From an uncultured bacterium (GTDB lineage Bacteria; Vulcanimicrobiota; CADAWZ01), in the NCBI GenBank assembly GCA_949288455.1, contig CASEKF010000042.1, positions 52,977 through 116,976 on the forward strand: DNA of 64,000 bases, written 5' to 3'. A program made the position numbers and the translations under genes. The notes beneath the pieces were generated by a model. The model saw only the letters and a program-made list of their open reading frames with translations, ran no database searches and had not been told where the DNA came from. Position 1 is the stretch's first letter, and the number at the start of each line of letters is the position of its first letter. Positions 1 through 39,726 of this stretch are shown here, in pieces.

Positions 1-1586
1 TTCTGTACATGCAAACGGTACTCCGAGCTCTTGCGATTAATATGGCGCAGAGCCTCCGCAACCACCTCGTCAATCAGTTCCGTGGATATATGCAGATTCA
101 TTCGTCCTTTTTCCAACCGACTGACAGACAGCAGATTTTCCACCAGGTTAATGAGCCACATGGCATCGTCATAGATATCTGTATACATCTGTTTCTTGGT
201 TTGTGCGTCAAATAAATCTCCATTGGAGAGCAGGTTGCTGGCATTTCCCGAAATAGATGTAAGAGGAGTACGCAGATCATGAGAAATGGAGCGAAGCAGA
301 TCGGCTCGAAGCTGTTCATTTTTAGCCAAAACCGCAGCGGCTTCTTTTTCTTCCAAATTTTTTTGGTTTTCCAGAGCAAGTGCAGATTCGCCTAAAACAG
401 AAAGAAGAATACTTGTTTCAAAGGAATCCAGCGGCTTATCGGATGAGGCAATGCCCACGACTCCATAAATCTGCTTTCCCGTCCGTATCGACAGATAGGT
501 ACAGCAGGAATCTGAAAGGTTTTCCGTTCCGGCTCCCGCCCGTTCGTTGTTTGTGATCACCCACTGGACTACTTCGCGCTCCTTCTCTGAGATATAACGC
601 TCCGGAGAAGCCGTACTGTTAGCAAGAAAGATTTCCGGCATCACAGGTTTTTCCTCCTGTATACGGTAGGCAATAATATCCCGTTGGAATATTTTTAATA
701 ACTGCTTTGCTGTTACTGAAATGATTTCTTCCTGTGTCCGAGCCTTTTGAAGATTCTGATTAGTTTCAAGAAGAAGCTTCGTACGCCAGGCCACCTGGGC
801 TGAGCGTTTGGCATGGGACTTAAGTTTGGATGCTAACGAACCCGTAAGCAGTGAAGCCAGGAACATGACAAAAAATGTAACCGGATAGCCGCTGTCATAG
901 GCGTGCAGAGAAAATCTGGGTTCCGTAAAAAATAAATTGAACGTAAGCACGCTGGCTAATGAAGCGATAAAACTGCAAACGGAACTCTTTGTGGATATGG
1001 AAACCAGCATAACGCCCAAAATATAAAGCGTAATAATGTTGGCTTCCGTAAAGCCTAAATGATAAAACAAAAATCCGATAACCGTAGCTAAAACAAGGAG
1101 CAACGCGATTTTTAACAAATCAAGAATTGACAAGGTCGGAAGACGTATGATTTCTCGATGCTTTGCGGCAAATCGATCGTTTGTTCCATTATCTGGAATG
1201 ATGTGAATGTCAAGTTCCGGGATCAGCTTAATAAGCCGATCGGTTAAGTATGGCTTCCGGAACGGCATGCGATGCGATATCCCGCTCTGCCCAAGCACAA
1301 TTTTCGTGACCCCAGACAGGCGCGAGAATTCTGCGATTTGATACGCAATATCATCGCCATAAATGGTTTCGAAGGATGCCCCCAGTTGCTGCGCCAGATG
1401 AATATTGTTCTGGAGTCGTTCTTTATCCGTCTGGGATATCCGCTGAAATTCTTTCGTTTCCACAAAGAGAGCAGTCAATCCGCAGCGGAAAGCGCTTGCC
1501 ATCCGTACTGCTGTGCGTATAATTTTCTCATTGGAAGGAGCGGAAGAAAGGCATACCAGAATATGCTCGTGCGTACGGTATCCCAT
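1..1586 (-). CDS. KdpD-like sensor histidine kinase paralog (Usp-like/TM/GAF/HisKA-HATPase part); 3' end runs off window edge
   Basis: Minus-strand frame 2 hand-translates to ...MGYRTHEHILVCLSSAPSNEKIIRTAVRMASAFRCGLTALFVETKE... (~1500-1586), ...YDSGYPVTFFVMFLASLLTG... (~841-899) and ...LRADLLRSISHDLRTPLTSISGNASNL... (~270-330). These are collinear with KdpD at 7675-10353 (GEHILICLSSAPSNAKVIRTAARMAEAF / NDPGYPVTFLIMLF / LQADLLRAVSHDLQTPLTNI). No stop was seen before position 1. The ORF track omits it because it lacks an in-window stop. A Met at 1584-1586 is a possible restart. Confidence 0.55.
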   Translation of the reverse strand, partial: MGYRTHEHILVCLSSAPSNEKIIRTAVRMASAFRCGLTALFVETKEFQRISQTDKERLQNNIHLAQQLGASFETIYGDDIAYQIAEFSRLSGVTKIVLGQSGISHRMPFRKPYLTDRLIKLIPELDIHIIPDNGTNDRFAAKHREIIRLPTLSILDLLKIALLLVLATVIGFLFYHLGFTEANIITLYILGVMLVSISTKSSVCSFIASLASVLTFNLFFTEPRFSLHAYDSGYPVTFFVMFLASLLTGSLASKLKSHAKRSAQVAWRTKLLLETNQNLQKARTQEEIISVTAKQLLKIFQRDIIAYRIQEEKPVMPEIFLANSTASPERYISEKEREVVQWVITNNERAGAGTENLSDSCCTYLSIRTGKQIYGVVGIASSDKPLDSFETSILLSVLGESALALENQKNLEEKEAAAVLAKNEQLRADLLRSISHDLRTPLTSISGNASNLLSNGDLFDAQTKKQMYTDIYDDAMWLINLVENLLSVSRLEKGRMNLHISTELIDEVVAEALRHINRKSSEYRLHVQ

Positions 1587-1959
1587 CCTGTTCTGGGAAC
1601 TGTGGGCATATAAATCCGCTCTGTCTGTACAACGCCGCAACGCGACCTCCTGCAGTGCGCTTAATTAGTGTATAGTCGGAAAGCAACCCGCTCTTATTCC
1701 GATCAAGCATACGCTGACGCAATCTTTCCGACGCAATATAAATAAACTCTATTTTCAGCCGACAATTTAGTTTTGATGCCGCCATTCGCAGAAAAGCAAG
1801 CAAATGATTACATCTATTACCGCCTGTTTGGACGTTTCGGTTATCTTCGACATTGAATGGTTTGTGTCGCTCTGGAAAACAATTGGCAAAAATGGTGAGT
1901 CTACTTGCAGGCTGCTTAGAACGTGCGCCTCTACTTACTATATCTTCCTTTTCAAGCAA
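1528..1959 (-). pseudogene. Degraded remnant of the KdpD N-terminal (KdpD/Usp-OKCHK) domain, frameshifted relative to the downstream kinase ORF
   Basis: The ORF product ...FIYIASERLRQRMLDRNKS...RTAGGRVAAL resembles KdpD ...LAALREIAMRRTADQLNRTALQEG. Homology switches to the +1 frame near 1590-1600 and to other frames upstream (~1800-1960, NVQTGG vs TVNVQHL). The in-frame upstream stop is TAA near 1660. Confidence 0.4.
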
Positions 1960-2635
1960 ATGTATTATAGCATGATTTTACGCTCTCTGTCCACGGAAGT
2001 GACGAATAAATGACAGTAGCAAATTTTGGTTATCGCTGTTTTTCCATATTTGCCTGAGTCGTTGTTTCGTTTGCGCACTCCGATTGAAAAAGCTCGTTTT
2101 TCCCCCGCGCCGAAAAATCGCGAAAGCGCCCGACTATTGTAATCGGAACGCAGCGAATGACGGCTCCGCAAAGTGTGTTTTTACGACCAAGACCAAAATA
2201 TTTTTTCATCATATACAGCTAAATAAAAAGGCTAGTGAAAATGCGATAATTGCCGTACAGATACGGAGTTTGCAAAATCCCATAAAACTCGTGACGCAAC
2301 GTAAATTTTTCAATTGAGGTGTCCATAATGGTTTTAAACGAGAGACGCTTTTTAAACGTAATCGACATATTTGTGTTATCTTTATGGCCCGATGATAACA
2401 TACGGAATTAAAACCTGGAAAAAGATTGAATATATGACATCAGTGTTTTCTGCATTGCATATAAGCGCAAACCGGCTGAACAGAAAAACAACCGAAAGAT
2501 CAATTCTTTTAAGAACCGCTAAACTGACAAATGCCACTTGCTCCGGTTTGGAGACCATTTGCAGACGCCTATTAATTATTCGTTCAGATTCAGACAGGGG
2601 CAGATGTTTTTTAACGATTGAGGGAACAGCGCCCC

Positions 2636-3310
2636 TTATTTGTCCTTATTCTCCAGAAGGCCCATTGCCTCGGCAATATCTAAATTTACGCCGATAACAT
2701 TGACGGTTTCTTCGCCGAAAACACCTAAAAATTTACCTTTTGTGTTATCCTGAACGATCTGTTCCAGTTTTTCCACTCTCAGACCGGAAGAAGCCGCCAA
2801 CGCAGGAATTTGAATACGGGCAGACGCAGGGGTAATGTGCGGATCCAGTCCGGAACCGGAAGCGGTCATCAAATCAGCGGGAATATTTTCCCGCTTTACG
2901 TCTGGATTAGCTTCCAAAAACGATTGGATGTCAGCTTCGACCCGTTCGGCCAATTCCGGATTGGAAGGCGCATAGTTGTTGGAACCTGAGCTGAGTCCGG
3001 CAAACCTGCTGCCGTCATTGTAGTATTTATTGCCCTGTTCATCCTCATAATAGGTGTTATAGTTGTAAGCCGAGGGGCGACCTTTCATGAAATAGGGCTC
3101 GGTGAAATCCTGCCCTATATATGCTGACCCCACTGCCTGTCCGTTTATATAGATCAGGCTGCCATTGGCTTGACTGGGGAAAAGCACCATGGAAATGCCG
3201 CTGAGCAATACGGGAAATACAAAACCGCAGAGCAGCAACAGTATCAATGTTACTACCAAAGACTGACGCAAACCGTGCAGAAATGCGTTTTTGTTTGTTG
3301 GTTCGTTCAT
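2636..3310 (-). CDS. kdpC: K+-transporting ATPase subunit C
   Basis: 224 aa with an N-terminal TM helix, directly downstream of kdpB. The length and position are typical of KdpC. Confidence 0.85.
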   Translation of the reverse strand: MNEPTNKNAFLHGLRQSLVVTLILLLLCGFVFPVLLSGISMVLFPSQANGSLIYINGQAVGSAYIGQDFTEPYFMKGRPSAYNYNTYYEDEQGNKYYNDGSRFAGLSSGSNNYAPSNPELAERVEADIQSFLEANPDVKRENIPADLMTASGSGLDPHITPASARIQIPALAASSGLRVEKLEQIVQDNTKGKFLGVFGEETVNVIGVNLDIAEAMGLLENKDK

Positions 3311-3324
3311 AATAAGAGACCTCC

Positions 3325-5376
3325 TTAGATACCGATTGCTGTCAGTATGGGAGCAATGATAGTATCAATGATTTTGATTCCGATAAAGGGAGTGATGACT
3401 CCGCCAAGGCCATAGATCATCATATTTCGAGCCAATATTTTTTCAGAAGACATAGGACGGTATTTAACGCCTTTCATCGCCAGAGGGATCAAGCAGGGAA
3501 TGATTATCGCGTTAAAGATCAATGCGGACAGGATCGCGCTGTTTTGTGTGCTCAGCTGCATGATATTCAAAACCCCCACTTGAGGAATAATTGCCATAAA
3601 CATAGCAGGAATAATCGCAAAATACTTTGCAATATCATTTGCTATGGAGAAGGTGGTAAGAGAGCCGCGGGTGATGAGCAGCTGTTTGCCGATTTCCACT
3701 ACCTCCAGGATCTTGGTGGGGTCAGAGTCCAGATCCACCATATTGGCGGCTTCCTTAGCCGCGGTAGTGCCGGAATTCATGGCAAGGCCTACGTTTGCCT
3801 GGGCAAGAGCGGGAGCGTCGTTGGTGCCATCTCCGGTCATGGCAACGATTTTCCCTTCTGCTTGCTCCTTTTTGATGACGCTGATCTTATCTTCCGGCTT
3901 ACACTCGGCAATAAAGCCGTCCACGCCGGCCTCTTTGGCGATGGTGGCTGCGGTCAGGGGATTATCGCCTGTACACATAATGGTCTTGATGCCGATCGCG
4001 CGCAGACGTTCAAAACGTTCTACCATGCCGGGCTTTACGGTGTCTTTCAAATAAATAACGCCAAGAGCCTGATTGTTTTGGCATACAACCAGAGGGGTTC
4101 CCCCAAGCGAAGAAACCGTCTCTACATGGGCATGCAGATCAGCGGGTACTTTTCCGCCCTGAGACGTAACATATTGCTCAATAGCGTCCGAGGCTCCTTT
4201 ACGAACCTTGGTGCCATCAGGTAGATCCACGCCGCTCATGCGAGTTTGGGCTGTAAATTCCATAAAGGAAGAGCCCGGAATCTCCTCGCTGTTGTCGCCC
4301 AGACTGCGTGCCAGTTCCAGAGTGGATTTACCCTCGGGAGTTTCATCATGAAGACTGGTCAGAGCCGCACAGCGGATAAGGTCGCTGCGGTTTACCCCTT
4401 TTACGGGGAAAAAATCAGCGGCCAGACGGTTCCCGAAGGTAATGGTGCCGGTCTTATCCAAAATCATAGTGTCCACATCGCCGCAGGCTTCAACCGCTTT
4501 ACCGGACATAGCGAATACATTAAAACGGTTTACTCGGTCAATGCCGGCAATGCCGATGGCGGAAAGAAGACCGCCGATGGTGGTAGGGATCAGACAAACC
4601 ATCAGAGCGATCAAGGTGGACACTGGCAGCTGAATTCCGCAATACATTCCAATAGGGTACAAGGTGACAATAACAATCAGGAAAATAATTGTCAGGGAAA
4701 TGAGAAGCGTATTTAAAGCGATTTCGTTGGGAGTTTTTTTTCGAGATGCCCCTTCCACCAGAGCAATCATCCGATTTAAAAAGCTGTTGCCGGGATCAGA
4801 GGTGATGCGGATTTTCAGCCAGTCAGACACCACCGTAGTGCCGCCCGTAACTGAGCTGAAGTCTCCGCCGCTTTCACGAACTACGGGAGCAGACTCTCCG
4901 GTGATCGCCGATTCGTCCACTGACGCGATACCTTCGATAACCTCTCCGTCTCCGGGAATGATCTCGCCTGCCATTACTATAACGATGTCGTCCTTTTTCA
5001 GGTCTCCGGAAGAAACTAGAGTTTTGTTGCCGTCTCGATCCAACAGATGGGCTTCGGTATTTTTCTGGGTCTTCTTAAGGCTGGCGGCCTGAGCCTTACC
5101 ACGCCCCTCTGCCACTGATTCTGCAAAATTAGCAAACAGCACTGTCGCCAGCAGAATGATGGAAACAATCAAATTATACGTTCGCAGGCCGGTATCGCTT
5201 TCTCCAAATAGCCCTGGCACAATTGTCAACGTCAACGTAATAATGAAGCCAATTTCCACTACGAACATGACCGGGTTCTTGAACATATATCGGGGATCCA
5301 GTTTTTTTACCGAACCGACGATAGCCTGTTTTAGGATCTCTGGAGTCAGCAGCTTTTTATTTTTTCTTTTAGTCAT
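3325..5376 (-). CDS. kdpB: K+-transporting P-type ATPase subunit B
   Basis: 683 aa. P-type ATPase motifs [16 protein letters not shown] and [10 protein letters not shown] are present, and the length is typical of KdpB. Confidence 0.95.
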
Positions 5377-5392
5377 AGTACGAAAATCCTCC

Positions 5393-7150
5393 TTAGCCCA
5401 AAAGGGTCAGATGTTCAGCAATGGGGCCCAGTACCAGCGCAGGGAAGAAGGTCAGAGCGGCAAAGATGTACACCACGAACACAAGAATTACGGCAAAACC
5501 GACAGATCCGGTACTCAGCGTGCCGGTAGACTCGTTTACATAATTTTTTTTCATTAGCGAGCCTGCGATAGCCAATTGAATCACGATAGGCAGATACCGT
5601 CCCAGGAACATGACAATGCCGGTTGTAATATTCCAGAAATAGGTATTATCTGCCAATCCTTCAAATCCGGATCCGTTATTTGCTGCGGAAGAGGCGTATT
5701 CATACAACACTTGGCTCAAGCCATGAAAGCCGGGATTGGTAATGCCGGCTTGTCCCGCGGCCGTAGCCACTGCCAGTGCGGAGAAAGCCAGAATCAACAG
5801 AGGATGAATCATGATGGCCAATGCGGTAAGCTTCATCTCTCGGCCTTCGATTTTCTTGCCAAGATATTCGGGTGTACGTCCTACCATTAACCCGCAAATG
5901 AATACCGCCAGGATAGCGTACAAAATCATATTCATCAGGCCTACGCCTTTGCCGCCAAAGACACAGTTGAGCATCATGTGCAGCATCGGAACCATACCTC
6001 CCAGTGGCGTCAGCGTGTCATGCATATTGTTGACCGTACCTGTTGTGAAAGATGTAGTTACCGTGGTAAAGAGGGCGGATTGGGCGATGCCGAAGCGCAC
6101 CTCCTTGCCTTCCATATTGCCTTCAGACTGGTTGAGGCCAAGCTCAGCCAGAACCGGATTACCCTGCTGTTCTGCTCGGAAGCAAAGACTCAGGCCTGCC
6201 AGGAACAAAATTCCCATGCCCAAAAAGATGCTCCGTCCTTCTTTGCCGAATATTCTGGCAGTGATTCCTTCCCGACGAACAGGCGCGTTTCCCGGGGAGT
6301 TGCTCTCCTGATACCGGAGACGTCCGTCACTTAGCATCTTCCCAAAGGTAATGACGCAGGCGCCAGGCAACAGCATCATGGAATACAACTCGATCAGATT
6401 GGACAGGATTGTAGGATTCTCCATAGGGGTAGCGGAATTGCCGCCAAAAAAGCCGCCGCCATTGGTACCCAGATGCTTAATAATTTCAAGCGCCGCTACG
6501 GGACCCATCGCCAGGACTTGGAAGGTCCCCTCCATTGTTTGCACCACCACATTTTTCGAAAAGTTTTGAGGCACGCCCTGCCATACCAGCAACAATCCTC
6601 CTATCAGAGAGAAAGGCAGCAGTACTCGGGTAGTAATACGAACCAGATCGGCAAAAAAGTTTCCCACATTGTCCTTTGTCTTTCCGGCCAGCCCGCGGAT
6701 AAAAGCCATGCAGGCGGAGTAACCGCTGGCCGCAGAAACAAACATCATAAAGATAATGACCAGCATCTGAGACAGATAGCTCAAACCGCTTTCACCAGAG
6801 TAGTGCTGCAGATTGGTATTGGTCATAAAACTTATAATGGTATTGAAAGCCAGCGTGGGTTCCATTCCCTCAATACTATTGGGATTAAAGAGCGGGATGC
6901 TCTGGATACGGAGAAGAATGTAACCAATGGCGGTCATTACCGCATTTGTGCCAATAAGGGCCATGGCGTACTGTTTCCAGTTCATGCCCTTGTGGGGTTC
7001 TATTCCGCTTAACTTATAAATCGCCCCATCTACCCGATCAAATAAGGGATCGGCAAAGGTGCGTTTTTCTGCGGCGATATGATAAAGATACCGCCCTACC
7101 GGAATGACAAGGATCAGATAAATGATTAATGTCAGAACCAGCTGTATCAT
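5393..7150 (-). CDS. kdpA: K+-transporting ATPase subunit A
   Basis: Polytopic membrane protein of about 585 aa. Start reassigned to ATG 7148-7150 ([23 protein letters not shown]...), preceded by acaGGAGGactttcat. The 31-aa N-terminal extension in the ORF track overlaps kdpF. Confidence 0.9.
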
Positions 7151-7184
7151 ATGAAAGTCCTCCTGTACTGTTGTGTCCTCGACA

Positions 7185-7262
7185 TTAAAATCGCTCCGGA
7201 TGTACCAAGGCGTATAGCAGATATCCGCCCACCAGCAAAACAATAATTCCGAGCAAAATCAT
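7185..7262 (-). CDS. kdpF: K+-transporting ATPase subunit F (25 aa, MILLGIIVLLVGGYLLYALVHPERF)
   Basis: Hand translation of the minus strand immediately upstream of kdpA. GYLLYALVHPERF matches the KdpF consensus (E. coli GYLVYALINAEAF). An AGGAG is about 8 nt upstream. Confidence 0.6.
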   Translation of the reverse strand: MILLGIIVLLVGGYLLYALVHPERF

Positions 7263-7284
7263 ACTTTTCAACTCCTACTTTTTA

Positions 7285-7383
7285 TTATTCTTGTGAATTT
7301 ACCTGCCGCTGGCACCAATTCGCAAACGTCCAGACAAGGCCAAAAGCAACCGACAGGATTCCCGCCGTCAAACAATCCATCAT
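7285..7383 (-). CDS. Small hydrophobic peptide ORF (32 aa, MMDCLTAGILSVAFGLVWTFANWCQRQVNSQE) upstream of kdpF
   Basis: GAAAGGAG RBS lies 6 nt before the ATGATG. One predicted TM helix. Sits between the kdpD stop and kdpF. Below the size cut-off of the ORF track. Confidence 0.3.
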   Translation of the reverse strand: MMDCLTAGILSVAFGLVWTFANWCQRQVNSQE

Positions 7384-7674
7384 ATTCGGGCTCCTTTCAT
7401 TGATATAATTGATATAAATGATACCATTGCCGCATATGTAATGTGCTCAACGATAATCGTCAACGTATATTCCCCGATGATAACGTTGATTATAACTATG
7501 CGAAACGACATATACTTGCCGCAAGATCTTTATTCTTTCGCAGTTGACAGGCAAGTGATATATGCAATCTCTCTTTTGAGCTTATAGCATACCACAATCT
7601 GTAATAAGCGGGGATTAAGGAAGATAACGGGATATTAACAGGAGATTAATATTTTCCCATTTTATTTCAGCAAA

Positions 7675-10353
7675 CTATTTTACTTTGTCCGGAAAAACCA
7701 GCGGAAGCGTAAACTGGAATGTAGTTCCAGTCGGCAGATGATCCAAAACGGCAATTTCTCCTCCATGTATCGCGACAATAGATTGACAGAGGCTGAGTCC
7801 GAGTCCCAGGCCTCTTTGACAATCCGTCTTTTCTTGCCCCGCAGTGTAAAATAAATTGAACAAATGCTTTTTTGCATTATCTGGAATGCCCGGACCGTCA
7901 TCCGTGACGCTGATTTGCACAACTTGTCCTTTTTGTACGGCGCGTAGTTCAATATTTGATCCTTTAGGCGTGTATTGAATTGCGTTGTTCATTATATTGA
8001 TCAAAACTCGCTGGATAAGTGTCGCATTCATCATAGCCATGCGTGCGTTATCATCCAGATGTACCGATATGCGGTGTTCTTCCGCTCTGTGATCCAGATG
8101 TGAGACTGTATTCCGAAAAAGAGCTTCTATCGGTTCTGCGCTCATTTTGAACGATTCCTTATCTGTTTCCAGCCGAGTGGCTGCCAACAAATTTTCTGCC
8201 ATGTTAATCAGCCAGTTTGTATCGTCATAAATGGCCATGTAGAGTTTTTTCCTGATTGCGGGATCCGGCGTCGACTCTTCTTGCATAAGCGCATCGGTAC
8301 TGTTTTTGATATTTGTAAGCGGCGTTTGTAAATCATGGGAAACTGCGCGAAGCAAATCCGCTTGCAGTCTCTCTTTTTGTATTTGCAGCGCTGCTTTATT
8401 ACGCTCTTCCTGTAGTCGGATGCGTTCCTGGCTGAGACCACATGCACTTAAAATAGCAGTCATCAGGTTTTTTTCAAAGGCATCTGGGATGGAGTAACCT
8501 GCAATTGGAATGCCTACAATCCCCATAACGCCTTGCGTGCCTCTGACCGAGAGAAAGAGCAATTTAGCGTCCGGCAGAGTATTTGTGGTCGCGCCGGCAT
8601 GTTTATTGTTTCTTTGTACCCACTTGGCCACCCCGATTTCTTCGGAACTCAACTCGGCTAAAATCTTCTCTTCATCGGATGGCTCTACTCGAAATGCCAA
8701 CTCTTTTTCCGATTCACTTAAGGTATAGAGAATGGGACGATCAAAAAGTCGATTTAATTGTTCCGCAGTCAACCTAAGGCAATCCCATTCGGTTCGCCCT
8801 TGTTGCAGTTTTTGACTACTTCCAAAAAGCAATTCCGTATAATAGCTCTTTTGCGCCGCTAAGCTGGCCTGTGCCTTTACACGGCTGGCCAGCGAGCTCG
8901 CAATAACGCTGGAAAAAAGCATAATCAGAAATGTTACGGGATAACCGGGGTCATTGGCTTGAAAGGAAAAGCGAGGTTCTGTAAAAAGAAAATTGAAAGC
9001 GGCGACGCCAAGGAGAGACTCAATTGCGCCATAAAAATGGCCGTTTGTCCAAACTGCGGTAATCAGAACGCCCAAAATGTAAACGGTTATAATGTTTGAT
9101 TCGCTGAATCCGGCATAATAAAACCCATATCCGGCAATTGAAGAAAATATTAAAGAGGCCAGCATAATGCCTGTATCTTTCCATGTAAAACGCGCTTTTG
9201 GAACACGAAGCTTTCCAAGAGGCTGTTTATATAGCGGCTGGTGATCTGGAATAATGTATATATCCAGATCTGTTCGTTCAATCAGACGATCAGCCAGACT
9301 TTTTTGCCCCATAATCGGGTTTTGTTTATGATTGATGCGGCCCATAACAATTTTCGTTACGCCACTGACTCGAGCATATTCCGCAATCTGTACTGCCGGG
9401 TCAGTCCCGTATACCGTAGAAATTTGTGCTCCCAACTGTTCCGCAAGGCGCAGGTTGCTGCGCAGGCGCTTCAAATTTTCGCCGGATAATTCCTTTGTTT
9501 CCGGCGTCTGCACAAACAATGCTGTAAAACCGCTGTGAAAGGCTTCTGCCATTCGTGCGGCGGTTCGGATCACTTTTGCATTGGAAGGTGCAGACGAAAG
9601 GCAAATCAAGATATGTTCTCCGGCTTTTGCGCTCTTTTTCTTTCCCTCCTGCAATGCAGTTCGGTTTAGTTGATCTGCCGTACGTCGCATAGCGATTTCA
9701 CGCAAAGCGGCCAGATTTTCTGTGGTAAAAAAGTTCTGAAGCGCCTGAGCAGCCTGGAGCTCCCTGTAGACTTTTCCCATCTGAAGGCGTTTTACCAGCT
9801 CGTTCGGCTCAATATCAACCAGTTCGACTTGATTTGCTCGGTCAAAAATATGATCCGGGATTCGCTCGTTGACTGTAATACCTGTGATGGAGGATACCAA
9901 ATCGTTTAGCGACTCTAAATGCTGCACATTAACCGTGGTATAGACGTTGATTCCAGCTTGAAGCAGTTCTTCTATATCCTGATACCGTTTGGTATGCCGG
10001 CACCCTTGGGCATTATTATGGGCCAATTCGTCTACCAGAATGATTTCTGGTCTTCTTTGCAACGCTCGATCCAGATCAAATTCTTTCAGCTTAATTCCGC
10101 GATAGTCAATCTCTTTGCAAGGCAAAATCTCCAGCCCATCCAAGAGAGCCAATGTATCTGCTCTGGCATGCGGTTCCACATAGCCCGCCACAATATCTGC
10201 GCCCTCTTTTTTAGCCTGATGGGCCGCCTCCAGCATGGCGTAAGTTTTACCTACGCCCGCTGCATAGCCAAAAAAGATTTTTAGCTTTCCGGCAAGGATC
10301 GTACCGTCCGCATCTATCTTGACGCCTGACCTTGTCTGCTGCGTTCTATCCAT
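7675..10353 (-). CDS. kdpD: Full-length osmosensitive K+ channel sensor histidine kinase KdpD
   Basis: 892 aa. N-terminal P-loop (GYAAGVGKTYAM), Usp-like region, 4 TM helices, GAF domain, H-box SHDLQTPL and HATPase (DDGPGIP). Confidence 0.9.
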   Translation of the reverse strand: MDRTQQTRSGVKIDADGTILAGKLKIFFGYAAGVGKTYAMLEAAHQAKKEGADIVAGYVEPHARADTLALLDGLEILPCKEIDYRGIKLKEFDLDRALQRRPEIILVDELAHNNAQGCRHTKRYQDIEELLQAGINVYTTVNVQHLESLNDLVSSITGITVNERIPDHIFDRANQVELVDIEPNELVKRLQMGKVYRELQAAQALQNFFTTENLAALREIAMRRTADQLNRTALQEGKKKSAKAGEHILICLSSAPSNAKVIRTAARMAEAFHSGFTALFVQTPETKELSGENLKRLRSNLRLAEQLGAQISTVYGTDPAVQIAEYARVSGVTKIVMGRINHKQNPIMGQKSLADRLIERTDLDIYIIPDHQPLYKQPLGKLRVPKARFTWKDTGIMLASLIFSSIAGYGFYYAGFSESNIITVYILGVLITAVWTNGHFYGAIESLLGVAAFNFLFTEPRFSFQANDPGYPVTFLIMLFSSVIASSLASRVKAQASLAAQKSYYTELLFGSSQKLQQGRTEWDCLRLTAEQLNRLFDRPILYTLSESEKELAFRVEPSDEEKILAELSSEEIGVAKWVQRNNKHAGATTNTLPDAKLLFLSVRGTQGVMGIVGIPIAGYSIPDAFEKNLMTAILSACGLSQERIRLQEERNKAALQIQKERLQADLLRAVSHDLQTPLTNIKNSTDALMQEESTPDPAIRKKLYMAIYDDTNWLINMAENLLAATRLETDKESFKMSAEPIEALFRNTVSHLDHRAEEHRISVHLDDNARMAMMNATLIQRVLINIMNNAIQYTPKGSNIELRAVQKGQVVQISVTDDGPGIPDNAKKHLFNLFYTAGQEKTDCQRGLGLGLSLCQSIVAIHGGEIAVLDHLPTGTTFQFTLPLVFPDKVK

Positions 10354-10764
10354 GGTTTTTTTCTCCTATAATAACGGTCTGCGGTATACATGAGTGTTTA
10401 TATCATACCATGCGGAATACTATAAAATAATAAAAAATTGCCTGAGCGTATTAAGAACAAATAAAGATATATACAACTAAAACAGGCCGAATCTCTCTGT
10501 TTTCAAACGGTATCCGGCTTGTAAAAAATAATATTGGATTGAACTATCAATCAAGCGTTTCCTGTGAATTTATTTAGAAGTCTGTCATGACAGAAAAAGA
10601 GATTTTCATCTTGAAAAAAATATTATAAGGCTGGATTTATAGTATTACATCTTTCTATAACTCATTTTTCCCGATTATACTCATTATTATTCCCCTTTCG
10701 TTAATATAATATTGTTTATTTTATGTTAATATTAAATACGGAAATATATTATTTTTTGATTTTA

Positions 10765-10793
10765 TTGACACGTAGTGAAGTCGATTTTATTAT
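10765..10793 (+). promoter_or_regulatory. Sigma70-like promoter candidate (TTGACA-17-TATTAT) in the AT-rich spacer upstream of the Gly/Ala-rich gene pair
   Basis: TTGACA at 10765-10770, a 17-nt spacer, then TATTAT at 10788-10793. The first downstream ATG with an RBS is at 10960. Confidence 0.3.
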
Positions 10794-10959
10794 TCGTATC
10801 ATTTGACTGCGTTTATTTAAGCGCTATATTAACTATTGCGAAATTTGTTCATATTTTTTTAACAGCCTATATCTCCCGATATTTTTTACAATTTGTTATA
10901 ATAATATCAAGTTATTTAAGCGTGCTTATTTGGCGGTTTTTATAAGAGGTAATATAATA

Positions 10960-12699
10960 ATGAATAATCTGTCTTCTTCGGTAGCGATATCCGGTCAGTC
11001 TTATTCTCAGCGGGATAAAAACTTGAATTTAGAGCATGCGCTTCAAGACGAAAAGCCTGCGCTTAAAAAGATTGCCGATTATTTTGAGCCCAGAGAAACT
11101 ACAAGCGGGGATTTAGAGTACTCTTCTCCTAAAAAAGCAGCTTTTGCCGGAGGCGTGAAAGGTCTTTTTTCCGGCGGTATTACCGGAGCCGCCGCAGGCG
11201 TTTGCGGCGGATATGTCGGCGTTAGGGTTGGAGAAGAAACGGGGTCCATGACTAAAGCTCTTGCTGCCGGCGGCGCAGTAGGAGCCGGAACTCTTATAGC
11301 CGGAAGTTCGCTTCTTGCTTCCGCCGCAGGCGGAGCTTCAGTCGCAGCGTCGGTCGGGGGCTTGGCGTTGGCAGGAGCAGTCGGAGGAGGATTGGGAGCC
11401 GCGATTAAGCAAGTACAAAATAATAGCGAAACTGAATTAAATCCTAGTGTTAAAACTTTAGCTCCGATAGCCGTGGGAGTTGCGGCCGGAGCTGCCGCCG
11501 GAGCGATATCAGGGCCGGTAGGAGCCGTTGCCGGAGCCGTTGTGGGCGGATTGTCAGCCGCTTTAAGTAAGCCGGTAAGCGACGAAAAGTCTGCGGGGAA
11601 AGCTTCTCTTCTTTCCGCCGCGGTTTCTGCGGGAGCCGGAGCCGTGACCGGAGGAGTCCTTGCAGCGGCTTCTTCTTCAAACCCTATTAATGGGGCTAAA
11701 GCACTTTCGGCCGTCGGATTATTGGGTGGTTTAACGGGAGCTTCAGCCGTTATTTCCGGAAGCCGAGAATCTGATATTAGGGACGCTTCTGCGGGAGGAT
11801 TTACAGCCGCCGCTTTAACCGAAGCTTTTACGGGTTTGGGCGGAGGAACTGTGAGCATGGCCGCTTCTATAGGCGGCGCAGTAGGAGCTCGTTTTGAAAA
11901 TAAGGCCGGAAAGGTTATTGCGGCAGGTTTAACCGGAGGAGCTTTAGGCGCCGCAGGAGGGGCTTTCGCAGGTCCGGTAGGCGCGGCTTCGGGAGCGACT
12001 TTAGGCGCGGCTACGTCTATTGTCGGAGCCGTGGGCGGTCCTAAAGTTCAGCAAGGAATAAGGAATTTTACCGAAGATCTTCAAAAAAAGATACAGCCTT
12101 TTTCTGAAAAAGTCAGTTCTTTTATTATAGATAAATTGGGAGAAGAAAAAGGTTTGACGGCCGTTGGAGCTATTACCGGAGCTCTAGGTTCCATTCCGGT
12201 AGGATTGCTGGCCGGAGCCGTTTTGGGGCCTATAGGCGCGGCTGCGGCTTTAGCCGTATCCGCCATTGCCGGAGGATTTAAATTCTCCAATATAGCTAAA
12301 GAACTTTCCGATTTAAAAACGGTTAGAAGCGAAATGGCGGCTAAAGGTCCTTCGCTTGAAGATATTAATTCTTATATGTGTCAGGCCGCTTTTAAAAAAA
12401 TAGAGCCTCAATTGGCAAATTTATCTCCTGAAGAGAAAAAAGAGTTTTATGAAGAGCTTTATAAACAAAGTTTTGTAGAGTTAAAAACTAAAGAAAAAGA
12501 AATTAAAGAAGCTGCAAAACAGCTTGCCGACGCCGTTTACGCCGAGTTGAAACCTATGCTTGGCGAAATAGACGATAAGGAAGATAAACAGAAATTTATC
12601 AGCGGGCAGATTTCTTCTTCAAAACCTGTTTTAACTAATCTTATGGCCGAGTATACCGTATCTATGCTTCAATCTTCAGCTTCTTCGGCCTCTGAGTAA
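10960..12699 (+). CDS. Gly/Ala-rich glycine-zipper protein, paralog 1 (function unknown)
   Basis: Start moved to ATG 10960 (AAGAGG 10 nt upstream; the track start at 10930 is TTG). About 580 aa. N-terminal motif E(Y)SSP..GVKG..GG..G and VGEETGSxxKAL, a long run of GxxxG/AxxxA repeats, and a charged helical C-terminus. No signal peptide. The antisense ORFs 11079-11858 and 12081-12290 are compositional artefacts. Confidence 0.6.
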   Translation: MNNLSSSVAISGQSYSQRDKNLNLEHALQDEKPALKKIADYFEPRETTSGDLEYSSPKKAAFAGGVKGLFSGGITGAAAGVCGGYVGVRVGEETGSMTKALAAGGAVGAGTLIAGSSLLASAAGGASVAASVGGLALAGAVGGGLGAAIKQVQNNSETELNPSVKTLAPIAVGVAAGAAAGAISGPVGAVAGAVVGGLSAALSKPVSDEKSAGKASLLSAAVSAGAGAVTGGVLAAASSSNPINGAKALSAVGLLGGLTGASAVISGSRESDIRDASAGGFTAAALTEAFTGLGGGTVSMAASIGGAVGARFENKAGKVIAAGLTGGALGAAGGAFAGPVGAASGATLGAATSIVGAVGGPKVQQGIRNFTEDLQKKIQPFSEKVSSFIIDKLGEEKGLTAVGAITGALGSIPVGLLAGAVLGPIGAAAALAVSAIAGGFKFSNIAKELSDLKTVRSEMAAKGPSLEDINSYMCQAAFKKIEPQLANLSPEEKKEFYEELYKQSFVELKTKEKEIKEAAKQLADAVYAELKPMLGEIDDKEDKQKFISGQISSSKPVLTNLMAEYTVSMLQSSASSASE

Positions 12700-12712: not shown

Positions 12713-14044
12713 ATGAATTCCGTGAACATATCCGGATCTAGTCAGCCTGAGACGCGCGTTTGTAACGACGTAAAGAGGGACGGAAATTTAAAAAATAAAA
12801 TAACTGAAAAAATAGAAGATATTTTTGAACCGAAGCCGGACACTTCCGGTAATAAGATTTATTCTTCGCCTTTAGACGCCGCTTGGAGCGGAGTAAAAAA
12901 AGGATTTACCGCCGGAGGATTGGCATGCGTTCCTTCCGGAGTCTTAGGAGGCATAGCCGGAACGAGAGTTGGAGAGGAAACCGGCTCCCTTGCTAAAGCG
13001 TTGATCGCCGGATCGACGGTAGGAGCCGGAAGCGTTTTTTTAGGCTCCGGCTTATTAGAGGCTGCAGCCGGCAATTCTGTTATGGTTTTAAACGTTGGAG
13101 CTATGGCCGGAGCCGGAGCCGTTGCCGGAGGAGTTGGCGCGGCAATTAAGCATTTATCTGCTTCAAAAGGCATAGAATCTGCCTTTATAAAGAAAGTTCT
13201 GCCGGTTTGTGCCGGCGTTGCTTCAGGAGCTGCTCTTGGAGCTATAGGAGGGCCTATTGCGACGGCTGCAGGAGCCGTTATAGGAGGCGTTTCAGCCGCT
13301 TTGAGCCGTCCAAGCGAGGGTTTTGAAGGGGATGTTAAGGGAACTGTTAAAGCTTCTCTTCTTTCTTCCGCCGTAGCCGGCGGGACAGCCGCCGTAGCCG
13401 GAGGACTTTTGGCGTCGGTTTCGGCAGATCCTTCGGTCGTTTCCGATACCGTTAGGAATCTGGCGATAGCCGGAGGCCTGGCGGGAGGAGCCGCTTCCGT
13501 TTCGGGAGCCAGGCTTTCGGAAATGAAAGACGGAGCTTCCGCCGCTTCAAAGGCCGTGTCTATAGCTTCTGCGTTGTCTTCCGGGAAAGTAGGCGGCTTA
13601 ACGTCTTTATCTTCGTCGATTGGAGGAGCTATAGGCTTGCGCGCCGATACTGTTCATGGAAAGGCGTTGCTTTCCGGTTGCGTAGGCGGAGCCGTAGGAG
13701 CTGTTTCCGGCATAGCCGCAGGCCCCGCAGGCATGGTTGCCGGAGCGATTTTAGGAGCGGTCGCTTCTTCTATAGGAGCCTCGGCAGGCCCTAAATTAAA
13801 ACAAGCCGTTAGGAATGTTAAAGAAGCCGTTTTAGATAAATGCGAACCCGTCTTAATTAAAATTGACGGTAAGCTGGAACAATTCATTGATAAATTTGAA
13901 GGACCGGCGTCTAAGGTTTTGGGCGAAAAAACTGGAGAAAAGTTGACGGAATTTGTAAAGGAAAAAATAGACGATGCCATAGATCCAAAACCTATAGATT
14001 TGGAACAGTATGATTTAGATAAACCTTATAATAAAAAAGAATAG
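12713..14044 (+). CDS. Gly/Ala-rich glycine-zipper protein, paralog 2 (function unknown)
   Basis: 443 aa. RBS TAAGGAG lies 13 nt after the paralog-1 stop. Shares the N-terminal YSSP / VGEETGSLAKAL motifs and the Gly-zipper core with paralog 1. Confidence 0.6.
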   Translation: MNSVNISGSSQPETRVCNDVKRDGNLKNKITEKIEDIFEPKPDTSGNKIYSSPLDAAWSGVKKGFTAGGLACVPSGVLGGIAGTRVGEETGSLAKALIAGSTVGAGSVFLGSGLLEAAAGNSVMVLNVGAMAGAGAVAGGVGAAIKHLSASKGIESAFIKKVLPVCAGVASGAALGAIGGPIATAAGAVIGGVSAALSRPSEGFEGDVKGTVKASLLSSAVAGGTAAVAGGLLASVSADPSVVSDTVRNLAIAGGLAGGAASVSGARLSEMKDGASAASKAVSIASALSSGKVGGLTSLSSSIGGAIGLRADTVHGKALLSGCVGGAVGAVSGIAAGPAGMVAGAILGAVASSIGASAGPKLKQAVRNVKEAVLDKCEPVLIKIDGKLEQFIDKFEGPASKVLGEKTGEKLTEFVKEKIDDAIDPKPIDLEQYDLDKPYNKKE

Positions 14045-18428: not shown

Positions 18429-21400
18429 TTATTTAATTTCAATTTCTGAAGAATTAGTGTTTCCGAATACGTCCGGAGAGTACATCATAGAGGCTTTAGC
18501 CGGGTACATAGTATATTTCCCTTTATATGAGGCTTTTATAAGATACGTAAACAGATGTTCTCCTTTGGTAAGCTTTGAAGCGAACGCTACGGCTCTATCG
18601 GAATAATATTGACGGTGATCAAAAGCGCCGTATCCGCTTTTAAGTTGAGTCATCCGTATTGAATTAAGCATATGTCTATAGAACTCGCTTTCCGTTTCGA
18701 GGGACACGTCTATAATTTCGAATCCTGCGGGAACGCTGTCCGTAAGAACTACGTTGTTTCTGTTATGCATAGCGTTGACAGATATCGTTACTTTATAAAT
18801 TTCTCCTTCTTTAAAACTTTCGCTGAATGTTTTTTGTCGTTTTAACGGCTCTATAGACTTCATGACGGTAAAGCCTCTGTCTAAAGCTTGAATTTCTCCT
18901 TGCCGTTCCCAACTAATCTCTCCGGAATAGTACATTGTCCCTTTATTCTCTTTTTCAAATACTATTTTCGAGGGATTCTCCGTTAATTTAGTCTCGGCAA
19001 AAATGCAATTGTTGTCGTATCCCAGCGGCTGCCAAGCGGCGATAGCTTTACCGTTTAATTTTACCGAGGCTTTGAACGTTTCCGAAGACATTCCCCGGAG
19101 TTCCATAGATTTAGCCGCAGCCGTTAGAGCTAGCGCATTTTCATGCGTGTTTTGCCATCTGTCTTTGTCATTTTTCTGTTCGTTCAGCCAAATAAGTATT
19201 TTGTCTGAATTTGGGAAAAATCCAAAAGTTTCGAGCAATGATATATATATTAGAGAATTTGCGGAGACGTCGGATTGATAAAATTCCGGTATGACGTCGT
19301 CAGCCGCGAACCAGGCCGCTTTGTTTTCTATGACCAGTTTATTGAAAATTTGTCGTTTTAAGTCCTGCTTAATATTTTCGTATTGCGGTTGTTCGCCAAG
19401 CGTTCTCATGAGCAGAGCTTTTCCTTGAATACCCAATTTATCGGAATTTTGTATAAGTTTATTTCTAGCCGAGTCGTTGTTTACTCCTAATAGCCCCAAA
19501 ACATAAATAGCATAGGCTTTTAGGAAGTATTTGCCTTTTTCGTTTTCAACTTCCCATTTTTCGTCTAATTTTCTGCGGACTATAGATTGGAGATAGTATA
19601 TTCCGGCATTTTTCAGTTCGTTTGGCGCCTTATATTTATTTGTGTCTAACTTTCCTATTACATGCATAACGTAGCAAGAAAGGAAGTCAGACGATTTGCC
19701 TTCCGACGGCCACATTCTGAAACCTCCGTCGTAATTTTGTCTGTTGGCCGTTTGATTTAACCATGTATTTATGTTGTCATTGACCCTTTCTTCGCAATTA
19801 AGATATTGAGCTAATTTTGCCGTCATAACATGTGGAACTGCCATTGACGTAATTTGTTCCAGACAATCGTATGGGTAGCCGACGAGATACTCGTAAGATT
19901 TTCTTAGACTTTCATATGCGCAGGAAGACGCATATACTTTAAGTTGCGCGTCTCTTGCTTTAGGTTCGTCTATCGATATTGTTTCTTCCAGGCAAGTTTT
20001 TGACGTCATGCCCGCAAACGCAAGGGTAAAGTAAGCGTTTTGCGCCGGTCTGATTGAAATTTGCGTCTTTAAAATATCCGGTTGAAAGTCCGAATCCATA
20101 TTTTGAGGTTCGGTTTTGAAGATTAAGTCCGCGCTTCCGTTTCGTATTGCTTTTAGGCTGAATAGAGCGACTTCTTCTTTGTTTGGCTTGATATTTAAAA
20201 TTTTACTGTTAGACGAATCTAAAAGTTTCATGTCTTTTTGATCTAAAGTCACTTTTAACGACGCGCTTTTTGCAGTATTGTTGATTAACGTCACTCCGCA
20301 CAGAATTTCGTCTCCTATATGAGCGAAAGAAGGAGCCGCAGCTTTTACGACTATAGGCGAGCTTACCGTCGCTTCCGCTTCGGCTAATTCGGAGAATTTG
20401 TTTTCAGAATAACCTATGGCCATAATGTCGAAGGAGGTTAGACTGTCTGGCATGTTAAACGATACGTCAGCTTTGCCTTCTGAACTTATGGTAACGGCCG
20501 GATTCCAGTAAGCTACGTCGGCGAAGTTGTCCCTTATAAGCTCCGAGTTGTCTCCTCCTCCGCCGTAGTCGCCTTTTTCCTTATACGAAGCCGAAGAAAT
20601 TAGATTTGTTTTTGAACAGAATATATTGGAATTAAGAGATAGGGAACCGTAGAATTTTTTGAAGAGATTCGGAAGTTCGTAGCCCGTAAGAGCAAGAGTT
20701 CCCTTGTCTATTACCGCTATCGAGACTTCTCCTTTGGCGGGATTTCCTTTTTCATCTTTAAGCTCTATTTTTACCGTGGCTTTTTCTCCCGGTTTATACG
20801 TTTGTTTATTCGGAGAGACGGAAATATATAATTTGTTTGAATTTGACGCTACGTTTACTTGCGCGTATCCTACTTTAAACTCGCCGCTGGAGCTTCCGTC
20901 TGTAATGTCAGGAAGTATTAAAGCCGATACGAAGAATCCGGGGATCTCCCGCGGCGTTATCGGGATCTCTATTATCGTAGAGTTTCCTTGTATTTTAACA
21001 AAGTCTTTGTATAATACGGAATCTCCTTCGACAGTTATTATCGCTTTGGCCGATTTATAAGGAGACGGTATAAAAATTTGAGCTTTTTCTCCCGGTTTAT
21101 ATGTTTTTTTCGAGCAGGTTAACTTAATTACCGGAGAATCTTCCTGTTCCCAGCTTGATATCCCGTAGCCGCTCGCATAGAATCCGGCTTCCGAGATCGT
21201 TTCGACTCCTTTTTTATCTTTGCCGGAAACTTTTACTATATAGTATCCCGGCTTTTCCGGAGTAAAATCAAAATTATATTCCGCTTCCGTAGCGTTTAAC
21301 GTTTTTACAACCGTATCTTTCTTTTCGTTAATCCATGAACTTCCGTTTTCTATAACTTCTTTTTTTACGCTTAACCATTCTCTTTTTAATATTTGTATAG

Positions 21401-27081: not shown

Positions 27082-27342
27082 GTGGCTATTTATATCGTAG
27101 ATAAAAACGGCTTAGATATCGCGGTTTCTTATGCGGCTATGGATTCGAACGCGAAAGTTTTTCTTATACAAGACGGATTATACGCGCCTAGCGAACTGCT
27201 GAAGGATTTGAAAGTCTTCGTTTTTTCCGAAGAGGTCGAAGAAAGAGGTCTTGGCGACGTTCTTCCCGCTTCTTTCGAAAGAATCGGGTATGACGAAGGC
27301 ATAGATATAATGGTTGACGAACGGATCGTGTCGTTTTGCTGA
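27082..27342 (+). CDS. DsrH/TusB-like protein
   Basis: 86 aa. ..KVFLIQDGLYAP.. resembles the DsrH/TusB signature (LLQDGVYA). Confidence 0.5.
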   Translation: MAIYIVDKNGLDIAVSYAAMDSNAKVFLIQDGLYAPSELLKDLKVFVFSEEVEERGLGDVLPASFERIGYDEGIDIMVDERIVSFC

Positions 27343-28307: not shown

Positions 28308-28312
28308 GAGGT

Positions 28313-29887: not shown

Positions 29888-29918
29888 ACTGGAAAATTTT
29901 TGAAAGGATATATATTGC

Positions 29919-37378: not shown

Positions 37379-37382
37379 TAGA

Positions 37383-39233: not shown

Positions 39234-39237
39234 TATT

Positions 39238-39726
39238 TTACTCTCCTCTATCTTCTTTTATAAGAGTATCTATGATAATTTTAACAGCCTCCGGAGTTAT
39301 TTTCGGATAAACCTTATCGTTGATTACGATTACCGGAGCAAGTCCGCAAGCGCCAAGGCAACTGACGGTTTCTACGGAGAATAGTCCGTCTTCAGTCGTG
39401 AATTTCCCGTCTTTGAGTTCCAGTTTGGCTTTCAGAGCGTTCAGCGTTGGCATTGAACCGCGAACATGACAAGCGGTTCCGTCGCAACATTTTATTTGAT
39501 ATTTTCCTTTAGGATCAAGGCTGAACTGACTATAAAACGTAGCGACGCCGTAAACGGTTGCCGGAGATATTCCCATCTTTACTCCTATCCGTATGATCGC
39601 GTCTTCCGGAAGGTAGTTATATTCCGCTTGAATATGCTGAAGGATTGCAATCAGATTAGACTGAGCGTTTCCAACGCTGTCTACAATAGCGTCGACTTTC
39701 TCAAGAAAAATCGTTTTTGAACTCAT
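39238..39726 (-). CDS. hydC: NuoE-like 2Fe-2S subunit of bifurcating hydrogenase
   Basis: 162 aa. CxxxxC...CLGACGLAPV pattern of the NuoE/HndA family. Confidence 0.85.
   Translation of the reverse strand: MSSKTIFLEKVDAIVDSVGNAQSNLIAILQHIQAEYNYLPEDAIIRIGVKMGISPATVYGVATFYSQFSLDPKGKYQIKCCDGTACHVRGSMPTLNALKAKLELKDGKFTTEDGLFSVETVSCLGACGLAPVIVINDKVYPKITPEAVKIIIDTLIKEDRGE

Follow-up and report, generated by a model that had tools for sequence, protein, structure and literature searches.

The kdp locus at the left end of a stretch of contig CASEKF010000042.1 from an uncultured bacterium (the window, 64,000 nucleotides (nt), to which all coordinates refer) raises the question of why a single set of genes for the potassium pump KdpFABC should be flanked by two genes coding for KdpD-type sensor kinases, one of which is damaged. 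A preliminary description of the same DNA had proposed the horizontal acquisition of a kdp cassette followed by duplication and decay of kdpD. While the proposed acquisition is supported by the data given below, the two kdpD genes are better understood in another way: this is a known Kdp system with KdpD and KdpE, present in an unusual island variant with two old KdpD paralogues, which has been taken up by a distant gut lineage and is partly eroded. As a working model we consider it probable, and the best explanation of the whole, that an island of the Oscillospiraceae type was acquired, that its middle part was eroded, and that a truncated second kinase (KdpD2′) was retained together with the response regulator KdpE.

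All kdp genes are located on the minus strand, and the features on which the argument is based are the following (aa, amino acids; ORF, open reading frame):

10354-10650, no strand assigned: right-hand limit of the cassette, from blastn of contig L001 (see below) against relatives
7675-10353, minus strand: kdpD1, full-length KdpD paralogue of 892 aa with the Pfam domains KdpD, Usp, DUF4118, HisKA and HATPase_c
7581-7649, minus strand: candidate kdp promoter/operator, conserved nearly base for base in 16 related loci
7380-7511, minus strand: 43-aa ORF, from the comparison of intergenic sequences
7285-7383, minus strand: 32-aa hydrophobic ORF, MMDCLTAGILSVAFGLVWTFANWCQRQVNSQE, with ribosome-binding site AAAGGAG
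7185-7262, minus strand: kdpF, 25 aa, NCBIfam TIGR02115 with 27.9 bits (cut-off 26.85)
5393-7150, minus strand: kdpA, 585 aa, start codon ATG at 7150, Pfam KdpA with E = 1.5e-232, TIGR00680 above cut-off
3325-5376, minus strand: kdpB, 683 aa, TIGR01497 with 1134 bits
2636-3310, minus strand: kdpC, 224 aa, Pfam KdpC with E = 2.1e-65, NCBIfam TIGR00681/NF001454 above cut-offs
1981-2635, minus strand: relic stretch with fragments of orf295, orf66, ktrB/TrkH and orf189
1964-1993, minus strand: predicted kdpD2 promoter, from promoter scan and alignment
1665-1938, minus strand: dead 5′ end of kdpD2, lesions mapped against relatives
1-1640, plus 382 nt beyond the left edge, minus strand: kdpD2′, truncated sensor kinase of 673 aa in all

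Gene calls with Pfam and NCBIfam thus bear out the previously given minus-strand order of kdpD, small ORF, kdpF, kdpA, kdpB, kdpC, a gap and a second kdpD, which in full reads kdpD1, 43-aa ORF, 32-aa ORF, kdpF, kdpA, kdpB, kdpC, about 1 kilobase (kb) without an intact gene, kdpD2′ and kdpE. The A, B, C and F subunits of the KdpFABC ATPase are encoded together, all four scoring above the curated NCBIfam cut-offs, and KdpB has DKTGT at residue 307 and TGES at residues 159-162, so that the regulatory serine 162 is present in the same numbering as in Escherichia coli. The kdpE gene, reported as missing before, begins about 375 nt to the left of the window. It is contained in L001 (L-numbers denote fetched loci and contigs), a 16-kb contig from another sample that was found by an exact-protein look-up of KdpC, is 99.3% identical to positions 1-11035 of the window and extends 5 kb further left. 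At L001 11396-12100, kdpE codes for a response regulator of 234 aa (Response_reg and Trans_reg_C in Pfam; best NCBIfam model KdpE with 221 bits, below the cut-off of 325) and overlaps the stop codon of kdpD2′ by 8 nt, which suggests translational coupling of the two genes. The gene order is therefore not atypical with respect to kdpD2′-kdpE, which has the canonical place after kdpC, but only with respect to the additional kdpD1 upstream of the pump genes; in other words, the locus is kdpFABC-kdpDE plus an extra upstream kdpD.

The gap between kdpC and kdpD2′, formerly taken for 650 bp of noncoding DNA, is in fact about 1 kb long (2635-1641) and built of gene relics. These were mapped by local blastn and tblastn, with Agathobaculum desmolans (L038), which has six genes between kdpC and kdpD2, as reference; aligning the gap globally with L005 gave a poor result for its middle part and was not relied on for relic mapping. 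Along the minus strand there are relics of orf295 (2551-2459), of the small membrane ORF orf66 (about 2365-2212), of ktrB/TrkH (2179-2051) and of orf189, of which the last 28 codons, coding for the C-terminus, are left (2064-1981). They are collinear with genes that are intact in L038, L004 and L051, and the CBS gene and ktrA/TrkA are gone from the gap. Among the 80 fetched loci, the commonest layout is kdpD1, kdpFABC, (orf295), orf66, (CBS), ktrB, ktrA, orf189, kdpD2, kdpE; many loci have only ktrBA-orf189-kdpD2-kdpE, and in several others either the Ktr genes or the pump genes have disappeared. The ancestral island probably consisted of kdpD1, (orf44), orf32, kdpF, kdpA, kdpB, kdpC, (orf295), orf66, (CBS), ktrB, ktrA, orf189, kdpD2 and kdpE, and in the lineage of the window deletions probably eroded its middle, with KdpD2′ and KdpE being kept. 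Relics of the opposite kind can be found at L023 6217-6603 and L036 6412-6672, where ktrB is intact and preceded by remains of kdpD1 and kdpC, i.e., the pump was lost and Ktr kept.

Beyond the gap, the lesions extend into kdpD2 itself. The predicted kdpD2 promoter at 1993-1964 consists of TGGACA, a spacer of 18 nt and TG-n-TATAAT (scan score 11 of 12, extended -10), and its -10 block T-G-x-TATAATAC, which is invariant in 12 of 12 aligned sequences, is intact in the window. The totals of the promoter and terminator scans were not above chance (23 promoter-like sites versus 20.5 expected), and only this conserved site was used. The ancestral start codon GTG has been changed to GTA (1938-1936), and 2 nt are deleted in the Walker A codons at about 1870; residues 31-56 are still readable at 1862-1785, a deletion of about 310 nt at 1752/1749 has removed codons 67-170 or thereabouts, residues 169-205 approximately follow in another frame (1755-1668), and a further deletion of 5 nt at about 1665-1668 creates a TAA stop codon (1667-1665). 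In the second copy, the N-terminal KdpD domain is accordingly broken, as had been noticed, by loss of the start, by these three deletions and by the stop, but there is no frameshift near 1590-1600, where one had been suspected; an in-frame ATG is located at 1586-1584.

In turn, the remainder of the gene is open. The reading frame had been described as apparently intact up to the window edge, and it is indeed open from 1664, the whole ORF of 673 aa being present, together with kdpE, in L001, L085 and L086; its likely start is TTG at 1640-1638, preceded by the strong ribosome-binding site AGGAGG ending at 1646, with ATG at 1586 as an alternative. KdpD2′ comprises Usp, four transmembrane (TM) segments (DUF4118), GAF (GAF_3), HisKA and HATPase_c domains according to Pfam, in which no match to PF02702 was obtained, the upstream DNA holding only broken fragments of the KdpD N-terminal domain. 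It aligns to positions 224-885 only of the NCBIfam KdpD model, and its nearest relatives are full-length KdpD proteins of 881 aa with 86-90% identity.

Comparing strains of the lineage, the relic stretch at 1641-2635 (995 nt) has about 24 columns with single-nucleotide polymorphisms (SNPs) as well as insertions or deletions (indels) of 1, 2, 4 and 12 nt, and its pairwise divergence of 0.019 is about the same as the synonymous divergence (dS) of 0.017. The indels of 1, 2 and 4 nt, together with a high SNP density, fall into 1981-2635, and the 12-nt indel, together with SNP clusters, falls into the dead 5′ end at 1665-1938. In contrast, kdpD2′ (2,022 nt) shows about 10 SNPs and a single in-frame deletion of 3 nt, with eight synonymous changes to one non-synonymous change between L001 and L085 and a within-lineage ratio of non-synonymous to synonymous divergence (dN/dS) of 0.04-0.09, and KdpE shows no amino-acid change among strains. 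Because the relics diverge as fast as synonymous sites do and purifying selection acts on the truncated kinase, the first 208 codons or so of kdpD2, the Ktr genes and their neighbours are neutral relics in this lineage, and from what is a small sample of substitutions we conclude that the 673-aa KdpD2′ is probably maintained by purifying selection. The decay ascribed to the second kdpD copy consequently applies to its N-terminal domain and not to the copy as a whole.

The most serious alternative holds that the kdpD2′-kdpE pair is itself a dead remnant and that regulation, if any, proceeds via KdpD1 and another regulator. It would be in line with the loss by kdpD2 of its start, its N-terminal domain and its upstream partners, with the degradation of a leader hairpin at the kdp promoter (see below), and with an amino-acid change on the host branch that is about 1.7 times higher than on the donor branches (dN 0.050 versus 0.029 at similar dS). 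However, all assemblies have kdpE and the 673-aa frame uninterrupted, with a sole indel that is in frame; comparisons within the lineage give more synonymous than non-synonymous changes (8:1 and 7:2), and dN/dS relative to the donors is 0.07-0.09, whereas the neighbouring relics have accumulated frame-breaking indels. In addition, the kdpD2 promoter is intact, the ribosome-binding site has even been improved (AGGAGGT in the window versus GGGAGAT at the same place in the donors), and there is no response regulator gene beside kdpD1. We therefore regard a dead remnant as improbable and the maintenance of the truncated kinase and of KdpE as the better explanation. As an observation apart, synonymous divergence between strains is 0.006-0.026 in the cassette genes versus 0.002 in the adjoining host gene of 910 aa (L001/L085/L086, small counts), which could be due to recombination or rate heterogeneity.

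With respect to the origin of the cassette, blastn of L001 reveals similarity to Oscillospiraceae from L001 382-580 (window positions of about 10,645-10,447) up to 74 nt past kdpE, which places the left limit about 1.15 kb to the left of the window. Just outside this limit, at a distance of 27 nt, lies a 97-nt insertion/deletion polymorphism between strains (L001 12201-12297). The proteins encoded by the cassette are 83-98% identical to Oscillospiraceae proteins, while LepA of the host, encoded 6 kb away, is 75-77% identical to proteins from metagenome-assembled genomes (MAGs) of Eremiobacterota, Xenobia and Vulcanimicrobiota and 66-68% identical to those of Firmicutes. MiaA was uninformative as a second host marker (best non-self match 58%; named matches at most 44%, to Patescibacteria MAGs), and neither of the two proteins points to Oscillospiraceae. 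Also the G + C content (GC) of the kdp genes (0.45-0.50) and that of their third codon positions (GC3; 0.45-0.56) differ from those of the other 36 ORFs in the window (GC 0.416±0.032, GC3 0.380±0.025), and as GC3 of the donor kdpB genes is 0.65-0.78, the intermediate values of the cassette would fit a partial amelioration towards the composition of the host. The notion of a compositionally distinct block hence stands for the kdp genes, with the end of the block at about 10,450-10,650. The GC-rich region at 11-14 kb could be ruled out as part of it, having a host-like GC3 of 0.36-0.39 and coding for Gly/Ala-rich proteins that raise GC; it contains two adjacent paralogous genes for such proteins (10960-12699 and 12713-14044, both on the plus strand) of 579 and 443 aa, respectively, without a Pfam family and with a local GC of 0.49-0.55.

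The host genes flanking the cassette are absent from all donor loci, and the sister lineage represented by L090 shares the synteny of LepA, DUF6941 and GAF genes with the host. Based on the identity to Oscillospiraceae proteins, the different affinity of LepA and the contrast in GC3, the acquisition suggested in the preliminary description is upheld, and the cassette appears to have been acquired horizontally from Oscillospiraceae-type Clostridia by a distantly related anaerobe the LepA of which is closest to Eremiobacterota/Xenobia. The reverse scenario, a cassette native to the host lineage that Oscillospiraceae acquired from relatives of that lineage, draws on the fact that the direction of transfer is deduced from identities, composition and occurrence and that GC varies widely among the carriers (0.42-0.64). 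However, the cassette occurs in dozens of Oscillospiraceae genera with identities graded from 54% to 90%, and its most complete form is found there; among host-like genomes it was encountered in a single narrow lineage, in which it is compositionally foreign with a GC3 between donor and host, and no kdp genes are present in the 10 kb fetched on each side of the LepA gene of L090. A native cassette is thus very improbable, and import from Oscillospiraceae-type Clostridia remains the preferred reading. The same cassette was also encountered in L010, a MAG labelled Phascolarctobacterium, with 86-90% protein identity, a flank GC of 0.40 and a kdpB GC3 of 0.445, which suggests either that Oscillospiraceae passed it on a second time or that the bin is mislabelled.

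The supposed duplication of kdpD in this genome is a different matter. KdpD1 and KdpD2′ are 39% identical over 565 residues, and their DNA matches only in short stretches of 73-74%. Both have positional orthologues in many Oscillospiraceae loci (KdpD1 74-87%, KdpD2 62-90%, as compared to 84-93% for KdpB, 83-98% for KdpE and 83-91% for KdpA), the one of KdpD1 being encoded upstream of kdpA and the one of KdpD2 downstream together with kdpE, and full-length relatives of KdpD2 come, for example, from Pseudoflavonifractor, Faecalibacterium, Agathobaculum and Allofournierella. The low identity together with the presence of separate orthologues at the same positions argues that the kdpD1/kdpD2 pair is ancestral to the cassette and did not arise by duplication here. 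A recent duplication after the acquisition, with one copy decaying, might be read from two KdpD-type genes that flank one kdpFABC and of which one is damaged, but it has hardly any probability left, given that each copy is closer to its own orthologue in Oscillospiraceae (74-90%) than to the other and that both are intact there at the same positions.

Equally negligible is the possibility that the lesions are sequencing or assembly errors or that the locus is a chimera of Clostridial and host DNA, for which one might invoke that the source appears to be a metagenome assembly and that one relative with a split kdpD2 (L084) has a coverage of only about 4x: the same deletions, stop and gene order are found in the NCBI contig and in SRR31228033, SRR25477721 and SRR31805492, and in SRR7685273 as far as the short contig reaches, and they include a deletion of about 310 nt and a gene loss on the kilobase scale instead of homopolymer slips. 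All lesions in kdpD2 and the gap are common to the window, L001, L085 and L086, and to L002 as far as that short contig reaches. Of the two junctions between cassette and host, the left one can be seen in L001, L085 and L086. The right one is covered by the window, by L001 and L085, and by L088, the latter, from a further sample, reaching across the right-hand junction only. The lesions are real and not sequencing errors, because independent assemblies of the same lineage carry them.

Turning to function, KdpD1 has the full architecture of KdpD, with matches to PF02702 (KdpD; 318.9 bits, E = 1.6e-95), Usp (24.2 bits, cut-off 24), DUF4118, HisKA and HATPase_c and with the H-box SHDLQTPLT as well as N and G boxes; its best NCBIfam model is KdpD, an equivalog model matched with 637 bits, below the cut-off of 1123. 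Motif alignment with E. coli KdpD identifies Walker A (GYAAGVGKT), Walker B (VDEL) and GKVY in its N-terminal domain. It was shown that the N-terminal domain of KdpD is a serine kinase that phosphorylates Ser162 of KdpB and thereby inhibits the pump, that this activity needs Walker A and the Walker B residues D109/E110, and that KdpD variants in which the two halves are separated, or one of them is absent, occur commonly in nature (PMC11018627). With Walker A, an aromatic residue 39, D109/E110 and R190 taken from this work as criteria, KdpD1 would qualify as such a serine kinase by its motifs (GYAAGVGKT, Y, VDEL, KRL..GKVY). Among its orthologues, many end just before HisKA, and those of L010, L020, L021, L044, L055, L045 and L031, about 660 aa in length, are without the kinase core. 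For the Usp domain of KdpD proteins that bind cyclic di-AMP (c-di-AMP), the motif (A/G/C)-x-S-x-S-x2-N ... (Y/F) has been described (PMC8214093); both KdpD1 and KdpD2′ have C-L-S-S-A-P-S-N ... TALF, which fits four of the five positions, the second serine being replaced by alanine.

The N-terminal domain of the KdpD2 clade looks different, as its Walker B is mostly DD, ED or DN, the residues after the Walker A lysine are variable, and the GKVY segment is missing; dN/dS of the domain is 0.11 in the KdpD2 clade versus 0.044 in KdpD1. L083, L084 and L046 have each lost it in an event of their own, at the same boundary. In L083 (1-316) unrelated DNA is joined at the boundary between N-terminal and Usp domains, in L084 (2981-3605) a CAA-to-TAA nonsense codon results in proteins of 199 and 673 aa, with the reservation of low coverage, and in L046 (9770-10001) there is a partial deletion of kdpD2 at or near that boundary. 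An old truncation shared with the other 673-aa versions (P0023, P0051) could be ruled out, because the unrelated DNA of L083 and the nonsense codon of L084 are independent events. Furthermore, stable genes of the Usp-TM-GAF-kinase type without N-terminal domain adjoin ktrBA in the more distant loci L064, L067, L070, L071, L073, L079 and L082, and Clostridium sp. AT4 (L072 8013-11938) has kdpABC, a kinase-less KdpD (residues 22-647) and, directly after it, an Usp-TM-GAF-kinase gene without N-terminal domain, i.e., a split into two genes.

Upstream of the pump genes, the conserved region at 7649-7581 contains direct repeats of the TTAAT type with a spacing of 11 bp (TTAATCTCCTG TTAATATCCCG ... 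TTAATCCCCGC TTATTACAG), followed by the -10-like sequence GGTATGCTA, and is likely to be a candidate binding region for a KdpE-type regulator. Just past this -10, a leader hairpin GCAAAAC-N-GTTTTGC is kept in most of the Oscillospiraceae loci compared (L003-L069) and destroyed in the lineage of the window (7545-7575, minus strand). The 43-aa ORF is homologous to a variable leader ORF of 44 aa in some relatives, with the ribosome-binding site and the original start being degraded in the window; within it, the 9-nt tandem unit TTATATCAA (7400-7417) occurs twice in the window and in L085 and once in L001. The 32-aa ORF upstream of kdpF is conserved in all relatives examined. Neither of these two small ORFs matched a family in the NCBIfam search.

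As a working model of these parts, we infer from the motifs and the conserved DNA that KdpD2′ would sense low K+ and phosphorylate KdpE, which would then activate the kdpFABC promoter via the conserved TTAAT repeats, while the N-terminal serine kinase of KdpD1 would switch off the pump via Ser162 of KdpB at high K+; KdpD1 may also feed KdpE. The loss of the N-terminal domain of KdpD2 would have been tolerated if its activity was redundant or already weakened.

Several points weigh against the scenario of an imported, eroded and partly retained island and against the roles assigned to its genes. The right-hand limit of the cassette is partly fixed by the end of the fetched L005 locus, and the phylum of the host is tentative, being read from LepA as single marker. 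The insertion shows none of the usual marks of mobility, so that a foreign origin is deduced from similarity and composition: no integrase or other mobility gene lies beside the cassette, where the neighbours are ordinary host genes and nothing qualifies it as a mobile element, an Rfam scan of the whole window yielded no tRNA, rRNA, c-di-AMP riboswitch or other match, and when flanking repeats, direct or inverted, were looked for, the only matches were those derived from the two paralogues. Nor was a clean empty insertion site found among the contigs examined, as every contig that has the neighbouring 579-aa protein in identical form also has the cassette, and the sister lineages L089 and L090 have no more than LepA-DUF6941(-GAF) in common with the host before the gene content differs. 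At a dS of about 0.65, even the closest donor sampled is still remote. The within-lineage test for selection comprises about 10 substitutions and is thus a small sample. With respect to function, a Walker B of the DD type may still be active in KdpD2, the N-terminal domain of which is under purifying selection in the donors (omega, i.e., dN/dS, 0.11) and so is not useless there; KdpE might have acted only on the lost ktr genes instead of on the kdp promoter, its role at the latter being a predicted one, as are the roles of all genes discussed here.

An extension of the working model, which we put forward as a doubtful though possible one, assumes a division of labour between the paralogues. 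KdpD1 would be the serine-kinase sensor that turns the pump off and often drops its histidine-kinase half; KdpD2 would be the histidine kinase for KdpE, ancestrally tied to ktrAB, with an N-terminal domain that was weakened and repeatedly shed. The lineage of the window would then be an end state in which this domain was lost and selection retuned the translation of the remaining kinase (new AGGAGG site). If this holds, the Kdp and Ktr genes together would form a composite regulatory island that passes between phyla as one unit in gut communities.

Beyond the cassette, the window consists of ordinary host chromosome of an anaerobe, with genes for hydrogenase, Rex and SelA. It contains a gene for a bacterial alpha-2-macroglobulin of 1,874 aa (18429-24053, minus strand), a cluster of AllH, CoA-ligase-like and AllG genes of the oxamate carbamoyltransferase type (27336-31325, plus strand) and a HydABC-type [FeFe] hydrogenase adjoining Rex (35627-39726, minus strand).

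For annotation this means that neither "pseudogene" nor "duplicated kdpD" is a fitting label for the 673-aa gene, and that the 1-kb gap consists of relics of ktr and other genes. The locus and its relatives form a comparative series with differing combinations of the KdpD halves, including kinase-less KdpD1, KdpD2 without N-terminal domain, and islands without pump or Ktr genes; with this series one could examine whether the N-terminal domain of KdpD is, as recently proposed, a serine kinase in its own right that acts on the pump. The locus also provides a clear example of genes passing from Clostridia to a poorly known gut lineage. The understanding of how the Kdp system functions is left unchanged, and the finding is not surprising in kind.

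Extra genes within kdp clusters are familiar from Clostridium acetobutylicum, where kdpZYABCXDE has additional small ORFs before kdpA and an additional ORF between kdpC and kdpD. That a kdp cluster can travel in acquired DNA is exemplified by the second kdp locus on the staphylococcal cassette chromosome SCCmec; unlike there, the surroundings of the cassette in the window show neither a recombinase nor any other backbone of such an element.

Compared to kdpFABC-kdpDE of E. coli (L087, NC_000913 b0694-b0698, b4513), the pump genes kdpF, kdpA, kdpB and kdpC are arranged alike, downstream of kdpC there is a gene for a KdpD-type kinase, overlapping with the gene for a KdpE-type regulator of the OmpR family, KdpB shares DKTGT, TGES and Ser162 at the same position, and KdpD1 aligns with E. 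coli KdpD from end to end, with Walker A, Walker B and GKVY being kept. In contrast to E. coli, there are an orphan second KdpD of full length upstream of the pump genes, the additional ORFs of 43 and 32 aa, a KdpE-paired kinase without N-terminal KdpD domain, and about 1 kb of relic DNA between kdpC and the gene of that kinase. In the Bacillus cereus group, a c-di-AMP riboswitch governs the kdp operon, which is devoid of KdpE (PMC6488665), whereas KdpE is present here and the Rfam scan of the window found no such riboswitch. Like the KdpD-like non-kinase potassium sensors of NF038185, KdpD1 matches this family with its first 370 residues (E = 1.5e-98, below cut-off) and has the orthologues of about 660 aa without kinase core mentioned above, but in the window it keeps complete HisKA and HATPase_c domains.

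Finally, Silberberg et al. (2024) described species with the serine- and histidine-kinase halves on separate polypeptides, with kinase-less KdpD and with extra variants beside a full-length KdpD (PMC11018627). Similar to these variants, KdpD1 of many relatives ends before HisKA, and KdpD2′ is a histidine-kinase-only form. Unlike in the commonest split, into KdpD/Usp and TM/GAF/kinase parts, the truncated KdpD2′ keeps Usp, and the other protein, KdpD1, is a complete KdpD and not a half. Moreover, the split seen here arose by the visible decay of a full-length gene.

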